Origin: a virus
DNA length: 53,718 nt
Reading direction: 5' to 3' (one strand)
IMG/VR virus record: IMGVR_UViG_3300031414_000029
Below the pieces are notes generated by a model. That model made no database searches, was not told the origin of the DNA, and worked only from the letters and a program-made list of their open reading frames with translations. Shown piece by piece: positions 45,510 through 45,619 of this stretch (positions within the stretch are counted from its first letter, which is position 1; every line of letters begins with the position of its first letter). A program made the translations under genes and the position numbers.

Positions 45510-45619
45510 GCGGGAGTCTGACTAATAGGAAAGTCACGCTCAACAGGAAAAACTGGCGCAAGGAGCGTTAGTAGAATTACTGTTGTTCAATGTAGGTTCG
45601 AATCCTGCCTCCCGCCGCA
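45510..45619 (+). ncRNA. tRNA-like RNA (class II-like, no recognisable 7-nt anticodon loop)
   Basis: Acceptor GCGGGAG 45510-45516 pairs with CTCCCGC 45609-45615. T8 is present. D arm TGAC-TAATAGGAAA-GTCA 45519-45536. Stem CGCTC/GAGCG (45537-45541/45563-45567) closes a 21-nt loop. Extra arm AGTA-GAAT-TACT 45570-45581. Canonical T arm GTAGG-TTCGAAT-CCTGC 45592-45608. Confidence 0.55.

Follow-up and report, generated by a model that had tools for sequence, protein, structure and literature searches.

The 53,718-nucleotide (nt) viral sequence IMGVR_UViG_3300031414_000029 (hereafter the window, meaning the whole stretch of DNA that we analyzed), from a Loessnervirus-like member of the Chaseviridae, encodes on its + strand a genuine, selected, tRNA-derived and tRNA-shaped RNA at positions 45510-45616 that fails the standard tests for a tRNA. 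This tRNA-like domain is the almost certainly non-decoding payload of a phage-specific RNA scaffold, and we infer, with roughly even confidence, that the tRNA is kept for its shape, as a processing handle or a scaffold arm, and not for decoding. Direct reading of the sequence bore out the canonical parts that had been noted in the original prediction: a 7-bp acceptor stem (GCGGGAG, 45510-45516; CTCCCGC, 45609-45615), T at position 8, a D arm (TGAC, 45519-45522; GTCA, 45533-45536) whose loop, TAATAGGAAA, contains GG, a T arm (GTAGG-TTCGAAT-CCTGC, 45592-45608), and the lack of an encoded CCA. The D stem comprises 4-5 bp when reading and folding are combined, the discriminator is C (45616), and CGCA, not CCA, lies 3' of the acceptor stem.

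Default ARAGORN detected no tRNA or transfer-messenger RNA (tmRNA) genes in the whole window, and the sole Rfam match at gathering thresholds was to another element (47349-47417). A permissive Rfam search covered positions 44800-48000 (3.2 kb; E ≤ 10), and this is the scope of all Rfam results at that cutoff given below. In that search, the tRNA model (RF00005) aligned to 45510-45616 end to end with a score of 26.3 bits (E = 0.017), below the gathering score of 29, and placed 37 nt where the model expects 17. Among the ARAGORN runs, only the relaxed setting (-ps80, introns allowed) forced a call, reported as tRNA-Leu(caa) with a 16-nt intron at 33/34.

The 110-nt stretch that holds the domain is nevertheless more stable than its shuffles (folding z = -3.4), and homologs of the domain were identified in phages Y2, Faunus, pEa_SNUABM_27, Fifi44, Aioli, EaPF9, and Aeromonas phage phiA050. 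Across 12 phages, the acceptor stem is 94% paired with compensatory changes at six of its seven positions (variants include GCGGGAG/CUCCCGC, UGGGUAG/CUACCCA, CGCGGAU/GUCCGCG, and GCGGGUG/CACCCGC), and the T stem is 100% paired with compensatory changes at four of five positions (GUAGG/CCUGC, GUUGG/CCAAC, and GAGGG/CCCUC). The first of these acceptor stems, GCGGGAG/CUCCCGC, is presumably also that of E. coli tRNA-Leu(UAG). Thus, of the outcomes that had been held to speak against a tRNA-like RNA, the empty default ARAGORN result and the sub-threshold Rfam score were both obtained, whereas the stems, far from being unconserved, covary in relatives. The elbow and the acceptor/T minihelix of the domain are intact.

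In the minimum free energy (MFE) fold, the arm in the anticodon position is a 51-nt bipartite structure (45538-45588) comprising CAACAG (45541-45546) paired with CUGUUG (45580-45585) and an inner helix (45552-45559 with 45565-45572). The fold given for this region in the original prediction, with a CGCUC/GAGCG stem closing a 21-nt loop and a separate AGUA-GAAU-UACU arm, has a free energy of -26.9 kcal/mol versus -39.2 kcal/mol for the MFE fold. That fold, 12 kcal/mol above the minimum, would have a Boltzmann weight of about 5e-10, and the GAGCG partner that it requires is absent from Y2. The MFE arm has counterparts in Y2, with CAACAA/UUGUUG and an inner hairpin (ACACACAC/GUGUGUGU), and in Faunus, with CAGAG/CUCUG. 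Folding and comparison therefore support a long arm in two parts, CAACAG/CUGUUG and a hairpin inside it, in place of the anticodon stem-loop.

The size of this arm varies among the relatives. It comprises 5 bp (CAGAG/CUCUG) and an 11-nt loop in Faunus, 7 bp and a 4-nt loop in phiA050 and Kashira (the 'four-base anticodons' that ARAGORN reports for these two are artifacts), and 8 bp and 11 nt in CBB, while inserts of 40-80 nt occupy the position in SNUABM27, Fifi44, and Aioli. Loops among the relatives are thus 4-15 nt or long inserts. The combination of a 5-bp stem and a 7-nt loop with U33 and a purine at 37 is absent from the window element, and the 7-nt loop is also absent from most relatives, which agrees with the original proposal that the RNA is not a decoder. 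The only near-canonical loop among the relatives, CCUAGGA, is that of the T5-like phage KEY, which ARAGORN calls tRNA-Leu(tag). The discriminator is likewise variable (C, A, or U among relatives). Because the arm ranges from a hairpin with a 4-nt loop to an 80-nt insert and the discriminator is not fixed, the window RNA is almost certainly non-decoding. The pattern across relatives shows that the tRNA shape is under selection and that neither decoding nor any one aminoacylation identity is.

A larger conserved cassette (45476-45677, + strand; about 200 nt) surrounds the tRNA-like domain; the original prediction had missed it, along with a tag RNA farther upstream. A fold of 45476-45682 has a free energy of -63.9 kcal/mol (z = -3.65). 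An outer helix, O, is formed by UAAGAG (45476-45481) and CUCUUA (45672-45677), as seen in the MFE fold and by covariation, and a leader-trailer helix, L, is formed by CUUUAGUG (45484-45491) and CACUAAAG (45618-45625). A leader hairpin (AUUG-UUAAUU-CAAU, 45496-45509) directly abuts acceptor position G1 and leaves U at -1, a nucleotide that is conserved in 11 of 13 cassettes. The trailer comprises hairpin 1 (AACC-GAAA-GGUU, 45629-45640), a single-stranded 12-nt linker (ACAAAUAACACG, 45641-45652) whose alignment columns are invariant or nearly so, and hairpin 2 (AGGCG-ACGGUACG-CGCCU, 45653-45670), whose stem is sequence-invariant. Collectively, helices O and L, the leader hairpin, and the two trailer hairpins split by the linker make up a four-way-junction frame of about 95 nt that carries its payload at the tip. 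Every copy except Y2 has the conserved leader TAAGAGAGCTTTAGWGG... and trailer ...GCWCTAAAG...AATAACACGAGGCG...CGCCTACTCTTA, and these flanks are conserved because they are paired in helices O and L and in the trailer hairpins. The covariance model R1 identifies a single copy in the window (45475-45678; 104 bits).

Compensatory changes were found in all helices but the invariant hairpin 2. For 13 trimmed cassettes, pairing extends to 97% of cells, and 20 of 38 pairs are changed on both sides, a result equaled by none of 500 shuffles; slid controls reach 35-51%. An alignment of 59 distinct frames, which was fitted to the model and in which hairpin 2 was the search pattern while the other helices were unselected, is 94.9% paired overall, versus 34-47% for slid controls. 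In this alignment, helix O is 98.6% paired with double changes at four of six pairs (e.g., UAAGUG/CACUUA and CGAGAG/CUCUCG), helix L is 98.1% paired with all eight pairs changed on both sides (e.g., CUUUAGAG/CUCUAAAG and CUUCAGAG/CUCUGAAG), and hairpin 1 is 100% paired with double changes in all three counted pairs. The leader hairpin shows compensatory changes at four of four pairs over 11 phages (ACAG/CUGU, UCUG/CAGA, ACAA/UUGU, and AUCG/CGAU). The alignments admit G-U pairs solely when read on the + strand, an argument for RNA of that strand. Since the linker and hairpin 2 were part of the pattern used to scan sequence collections, their invariance in the scanned sets is by construction.

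Three features of the frame were considered and set aside. The motif TAAGAGAGCTTTAGTGG, which was weighed as a possible recurrent phage promoter, has a single copy in the window, comprises the 5' strands of helices O and L, and is unlike the motif ATTAGTTGGATGTGRA discussed below. A 10-bp complementarity between the linker and what we take to be helix 34 of 16S rRNA was judged to be within chance and is not claimed. The resemblance of the minus strand of hairpin 2 to repetitive extragenic palindromic (REP) elements (GTAG and a GC-rich palindrome) is regarded as a coincidence.

Similarity to the cassette was identified in 65 phage records from many families, including the jumbo phages CBB and fHe-Yen9-04, the T5-like KEY, the rV5-like Kashira, the FelixO1-like phiEa21-4, the phi92-like KP13-26, and members of the Chaseviridae. 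The frame is common to at least seven unrelated lineages. Identity across families is 85-95%, and the 35-nt block 45643-45677 alone is 91-95% identical in FelixO1-like and other phages. Similarity from family to family stops exactly at helix O. The best phage record covers at most 61% of the 661-nt non-coding island. Copies are annotated as tRNA-OTHER or tRNA-Phe, or are unannotated. A scan with the hairpin-2 pattern identified 16 loci in IMG/VR and 93 metagenome contigs; of the latter, 80 were searched with the model and yielded 80 matches. In contrast to these phage and metagenome hits, the 22-base hairpin-2 pattern had no match in 185,579 bacterial and archaeal genomes, a 14-mer scan of genome contigs returned only chance matches, and R1 found no cassette in the loci of cassette-less phages. 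BLAST returned no match to the cassette or to the KEY tRNA in 5,426 E. coli genomes, and a host origin of either was rejected on that basis. These observations show that the frame is phage-specific. In addition, a metagenome contig (Ga0308160_10098972, 1796-1916, - strand) appears, by eye, identical to about 45558-45678 of the window, so that this phage, or one very close to it, is represented in a public metagenome.

The payloads carried by the frame are diverse. A T-arm-like hairpin was identified in 32 of 64 metagenomic frames, and four of the 64 were called as tRNAs. GC-rich environmental variants keep the whole frame around a payload that is not a tRNA: an acceptor/T minihelix, a tRNA-like domain in circularly permuted order, or a long hairpin. 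Permuted-looking payloads, with a T arm, a hairpin, a D arm with GG, and a G/C closing stem, are found in the metagenome loci L204 (2958-3130), L176 (6867-7051), and L221 (144-316). Elsewhere, frames hold true tRNAs (Val-UAC, Pro-UGG, Ala-UGC, and Ser-GGA), and Leu-UAG is also carried. In Y2, the tRNA-like domain is kept without the frame. The frame is thus a separate unit that is older than its payload.

The reading that we favor, in which a tRNA shape serves the processing or architecture of a scaffold RNA, can be put as follows. The cassette would be transcribed within a longer + strand transcript, and its tRNA-shaped payload would be recognized by RNase P (at the U(-1)/G1 junction), by a 3' endonuclease or RNase BN/Z, and by the CCA-adding enzyme. 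Once cut, the transcript would yield a free tRNA-like RNA without an anticodon, while helices O and L would keep the halves of the frame joined and enclose the newly made ends in duplex. The most probable site of action, through binding of a protein or an RNA, would then be the invariant linker together with hairpin 2. Because such a payload would need only the conserved features, its anticodon arm and discriminator would be free to drift, as is observed, and the U at -1 fits a role for RNase P and 3' processing. Several considerations weigh against this interpretation. The involvement of RNase P and 3' processing is assumed from the tRNA-like shape alone, and the leader hairpin, by directly abutting G1, could hinder RNase P. 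Payloads that are plain hairpins or permuted domains could not be processed alike, and tRNA-type cleavage is therefore not a universal logic of the frame. The binding partner of the linker is hypothetical, and the invariance of the linker and hairpin 2 in the metagenomic sets is in part an artifact of ascertainment. Lastly, the exact boundaries, which do not depend on the phage family, and the HNH homing-endonuclease genes close by would suit a selfish mobile cassette as well.

Two alternatives are serious. As the original prediction proposed, the processed, anticodon-less RNA could accumulate and act as a decoy or sponge that titrates a host factor recognizing the acceptor, T arm, or elbow, such as a toxin or defense enzyme that cuts or modifies the 3' ends or bodies of tRNAs, or a processing or modification enzyme. 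We consider this unlikely, but it accounts for purifying selection on the elbow, acceptor, and T arm and not on the decoding parts, for the retention of the domain in Y2 even without the frame, and for an element that is confined to phages and located in the tRNA islands of virulent phages; moreover, an RNA of mycobacteriophage DS6A that consists only of a tRNA-like domain (TLD) and inhibits host tmRNA is on record (PMC11915505). However, bait for an anticodon nuclease should keep a mimic of the anticodon loop, and that is the least conserved part; the discriminator is variable, many frames carry payloads without tRNA features, and the target is hypothetical. We favor a role in processing or scaffolding over a decoy. 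The second alternative, which we judge less probable still and which may apply only in part, is that of a selfish mobile cassette or decaying passenger, spread from one co-infecting phage to another by homing endonucleases or by a mechanism at the DNA level that uses the terminal inverted repeats, with the tRNA as a hitchhiker that has lost its anticodon. The exact end of similarity between unrelated families at the outer helix, the high identity across families, the HNH endonuclease genes near the cassettes of Aioli, CBB, and Yen9-04, and the swapping of payloads are all consistent with such spread. Yet every helix, even one interrupted by 60-190 nt, shows compensatory change and not mere conservation, and what pairs as G-U here would be an A-C mismatch on the opposite strand or at the DNA level. 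Further, the 'inverted repeats' are split (46 nt from the 3' strand of L to that of O), unlike transposon ends, and neutral decay would have eroded the acceptor and T stems too.

Two other explanations are very unlikely. One holds that the domain is the charged, tRNA-like partner of a tmRNA-like tag RNA at 45073-45233 (described below) in a trans-translation system that the phage would encode in split form. In one non-coding island, 360 nt do separate a tag RNA that has no TLD from a tRNA-like RNA that has no anticodon, and two-piece tmRNAs exist in bacteria (PMC11915505). Nevertheless, the domain has G3-C70 and no G3-U70, a variable discriminator, no encoded CCA, and a D stem, and the part that would be needed to pair with a conserved tag RNA is hypervariable. 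The two RNAs also fail to co-occur: R1 finds no cassette in the tag-RNA phages 4HA13, GJ1, Calisson, SSEM1, C1, IME11, nithesis, UPM2146, and HK620, no tag-RNA match is present in the 2-kb cassette loci of CBB, Yen9-04, KEY, and Kashira (a result that covers these four loci and not the complete genomes), and Pectobacterium does not figure among the organisms tallied in the tag-RNA searches. The cassette is also present in phage groups that are missing from the list of tag-RNA matches. This non-co-occurrence largely refutes a partnership. Marginally less credible again is a decoding tRNA, for example tRNA-Leu, from which a short anticodon-loop intron is removed after transcription. The forced tRNA-Leu(caa) call and the near-canonical tRNA-Leu(tag) that KEY carries in the same frame can be cited in its favor, but the intron would lie at 33/34 with A at position 33, the forced stem is neither stable nor part of the conserved fold, and a group I core (P3-P8, >200 nt) is impossible in 16-37 nt; the Rfam group I model (Intron_gpI) had no match at E ≤ 10. 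The insert is hypervariable, the inserts of relatives are unrelated in sequence and length, and short-armed relatives have 4-nt loops and lack a canonical loop. To our knowledge, bacteria and phages have no bulge-helix-bulge splicing system, whose motif lies at 37/38, so that the 33/34 site and a bacterial host make an intron of archaeal or eukaryal type implausible.

The window RNA shares with canonical tRNA (RF00005), and with class II tRNA-Leu, a 7-bp acceptor, U8, a D arm with GG, and a TTCGAAT T loop, and many phage tRNAs likewise lack an encoded CCA. It differs from canonical tRNA in its 51-nt bipartite arm, the absence of a 5-bp/7-nt anticodon stem-loop, an unfixed discriminator, and a frame of paired leader and trailer. 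Among scaffold RNAs, GOLLD and ROOL are large phage or prophage RNAs near tRNA islands, and tRNAs are sometimes found within the GOLLD linker, making GOLLD a precedent for phage scaffold RNAs with covalently linked tRNAs (PMC12286853). Like these RNAs, the cassette is phage-encoded, is located in tRNA islands, and combines a conserved scaffold with a variable region able to hold a tRNA. However, the frame is only about 95 nt (versus >800 nt for GOLLD and about 580 nt for ROOL) and lacks their large multi-pseudoknot architecture, the cassette is found in virulent Enterobacterales phages and in soil and freshwater viral contigs and not in prophages, and neither family (RF01998 and RF03087) had a match at E ≤ 10.

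The tRNA mimics of tmRNA and YrlA resemble the window RNA in that a helix replaces the anticodon loop. Nonetheless, the tmRNA TLD has G3-U70, A73-CCA, and no D stem, whereas the window RNA has G3-C70, discriminator C, CGCA, and a D stem; further, the rest of the molecule exits at the anticodon side in tmRNA and in YrlA, whose termini form a Ro-binding stem, while in the cassette the termini join at the acceptor end. Neither YrlA/Y RNA-like nor tmRNA-type families matched the cassette in Rfam at E ≤ 10. A TLD-only form without a coding sequence is encoded by phage DS6A (PMC11915505).

Transcripts in which a tRNA shape or a tRNA precursor serves other ends are also found in cellular organisms. 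In MALAT1-mascRNA, a tRNA-shaped element recruits RNase P and 3' processing and thereby gives the flanking RNA defined and protected ends, its decoding parts being dispensable, and the sponge derived from the 3' external transcribed spacer (3'ETS) of E. coli leuZ is a spacer of a tRNA precursor with a function of its own. The cassette differs from both in that its leader and trailer pair together, in that some frames carry payloads that are not tRNA-shaped, and in that its processing is only predicted.

The tag RNA (45073-45233, + strand), which lies 360 nt upstream of the tRNA-like domain, was revealed by permissive Rfam matches to tmRNA families at 45072-45205. These matches are confined to the tag region and score 20-33 bits against thresholds of 47-50. 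The RNA comprises the 5' motif AGUUUUCGU, a pseudoknot resembling tmRNA pseudoknot 1 (PK1), a tag, helix 5, and two H-type pseudoknots. The tag (GCA AAC GAU AAU GAA AUG CGA GCA GCC GCU UAA) would encode ANDNEMRAAA, with a resume codon GCA at 45118 and a stop codon at 45148-45150, and the UAAGU that precedes GCA fits the tmRNA resume context (UA at -5/-4). Relaxed ARAGORN (-ps80) also recognizes the resume consensus, although its TLD assignments are spurious. Tags of 13 phages, including ANDNEMRAAA, ANDSEMRVAA, ANDDVVLMAA, and ANEEMYLAVA, always comprise 10 codons and UAA and end in AA or VA, and nine of the 13 phages have no in-frame start codon upstream of the tag. Pairing in the two pseudoknots (45169-45201 and 45202-45231) is 100%, both sides have changed in 10 of the 18 pairs, and none of 500 shuffles equaled this.

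No TLD in cis was detected by Rfam tmRNA models, by relaxed ARAGORN, or by inspection of the C1 and HK620 RNAs, which are bounded by a promoter and a terminator; on inspection, a T arm is absent from the tag RNAs of 4HA13, C1, and HK620. In phage C1, a TTGACA-17-TAGATT promoter lies directly upstream of the 5' motif and therefore leaves no room for a 5' acceptor strand. Judged by its sequence, the tag RNA is best described as a natural tmRNA derivative with an mRNA-like domain only. It was identified in 167 phage records, among them Chaseviridae including phiEcoM-GJ1, Gamaleyavirus, Deseoctovirus C1, Taipeivirus, and HK620, and in 157 of 5,426 E. coli genomes (about 3%), where it is never annotated; the copies examined were those of the window and of loci L001-L009 and L015-L020. 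The tag RNA may be more novel than the tRNA-like RNA itself.

Several further observations concern the tag RNA and its surroundings. In HK620 (L019, 1064-1440), it is located in the late-operon leader, between qut and the terminator tQ, and would therefore be made from pR' like the 6S RNA of lambda. A larger conserved domain, also present in Gamaleyavirus, C1, and Taipeivirus, comes after it there (GGUAAGAGCA...UGCUCUUUCC helices, GUGGUG...CACCAC, and kissing CUGAU/AUCAG loops). In Escherichia phage 4HA13 (L003, 1653-2084), an HNH endonuclease gene lies inside the second tag-RNA pseudoknot, of which 22 nt at the 3' end of the gene (L003 2070-2091) are 100% identical to window positions 45209-45230. 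This insertion suggests traffic of homing endonucleases through these RNA islands. Upstream of the tag RNA, window positions 45021-45066 (+ strand) form two hairpins that covary among Loessnerviruses (the first GGA-CAAUU...AAUUG-CC versus GGA-UAGG...CCUA-CC; the second GACUC-UUA-GAGUC versus CACUC/GAGUG and CUCUC/GAGAG). A mini tRNA-like gene of 68 nt that lacks an anticodon is present in the Gamaleyaviruses IME11 (L017, 1541-1607) and nithesis (L015, ~1600-1668), about 350 nt downstream of the tag RNA; it has UCCGGUG.../CGCCGGA, a canonical T arm, an encoded ACCA, and no G3-U70.

Between the tag RNA and the cassette, a conserved module (45241-45343, + strand; GAUUAGACGCGGGAGGAUGGCCGAUGCCC...GGCCCAG..., closed by GCUGCA/UGCAGC) is shared with Calisson, SSEM1, Fifi44, Faunus, and 4HA13 independently of the cassette. 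It holds the second GCGGGAG (45268-45274) that had been pointed out previously and that had been offered as an alternative partner of the 3' acceptor strand in a structure of about 350 nt. The heptamer is present, but that pairing did not hold up, as this copy is part of a distinct, conserved unit (GATTAGACGCGGGAGGATGGCCGATGCCC) that Calisson and SSEM1 carry without CTCCCGC, and the module of Faunus reads AATGGGAGG though its tRNA-like domain keeps GCGGGAG. A second shared module (45302-45392, + strand; UGGAACGAAA-hairpin-GUAGUUCCACC) is also found in Aioli and in Y2, where it lies directly upstream of the tRNA-like domain.

Another aberrant tRNA-like element (47349-47417, + strand) is located in a second non-coding island at about 46.6-47.9 kb. 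It scores 37.8 bits with the Rfam tRNA model and yields no ARAGORN call, and it has a tRNA-Leu-like D arm (GUGGCGAAAUUGGUAAACGC), two acceptor mismatches, and a truncated anticodon arm (8 nt versus 13 expected). The original prediction had suggested that the domain at 45510-45616 might be the counterpart of the phiEcoM-GJ1 gene annotated as 'tRNA-Arg, may contain an intron' (L020, 2150-2244). This was not upheld: the insertion in the GJ1 gene is 23 nt long and lies in the D loop, its sole match in the window is to the T arm of this other element (47390-47411), and R1 finds nothing at the GJ1 locus. Loessnervirus loci L001 (1801-1875, annotated as tRNA-Ser(gga)), L006 (~1690-1750), and L007 (~1785-1850) hold a further tRNA-like family, absent from the window, with a conserved 11-nt loop (UGGACGCGCGG) in the anticodon position and covarying stems (CAGG/CCUG and UUGAG/CUCAA). 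Finally, the motif ATTAGTTGGATGTGRA, which matches the 'putative phage promoters' annotated in phiEcoM-GJ1, occurs at window positions 1294, 32879, 37690, and 42199 (+ strand), with weaker copies at 33690 and 43950; the ICTV profile states that promoters of the Chaseviridae have not been identified (PMC12842549).

Our literature search yielded no description of the tRNA-like cassette or of a phage tmRNA-like tag RNA, and the scaffold family has apparently not been described before. Very tentatively, the frame might represent a new, phage-specific class of RNA scaffold that presents interchangeable tRNA-shaped payloads to the translation or tRNA-surveillance machinery of the host, in this phage in one RNA island with a tmRNA-derived tag RNA that lacks the tRNA half; such an island would be a toolkit with which to manipulate ribosome rescue and tRNA-directed defense, and not a set of leftover tRNA genes. 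The existence of the tag RNA bears on how phages exploit or block trans-translation. Elements of the kind described here are annotated as 'tRNA-OTHER', 'tRNA-Phe', or 'tRNA-Ser', or are left blank, and through such misannotation the counts of phage tRNAs and the arguments for codon compensation are contaminated by non-decoding RNAs. A small, strongly covarying, phage-only scaffold with swappable tRNA-shaped modules is a tractable new non-coding RNA family, and its presence in many model-adjacent virulent phages (T5-like, FelixO1-like, rV5-like, jumbo, and Chaseviridae) makes the non-decoding use of the tRNA shape directly testable.

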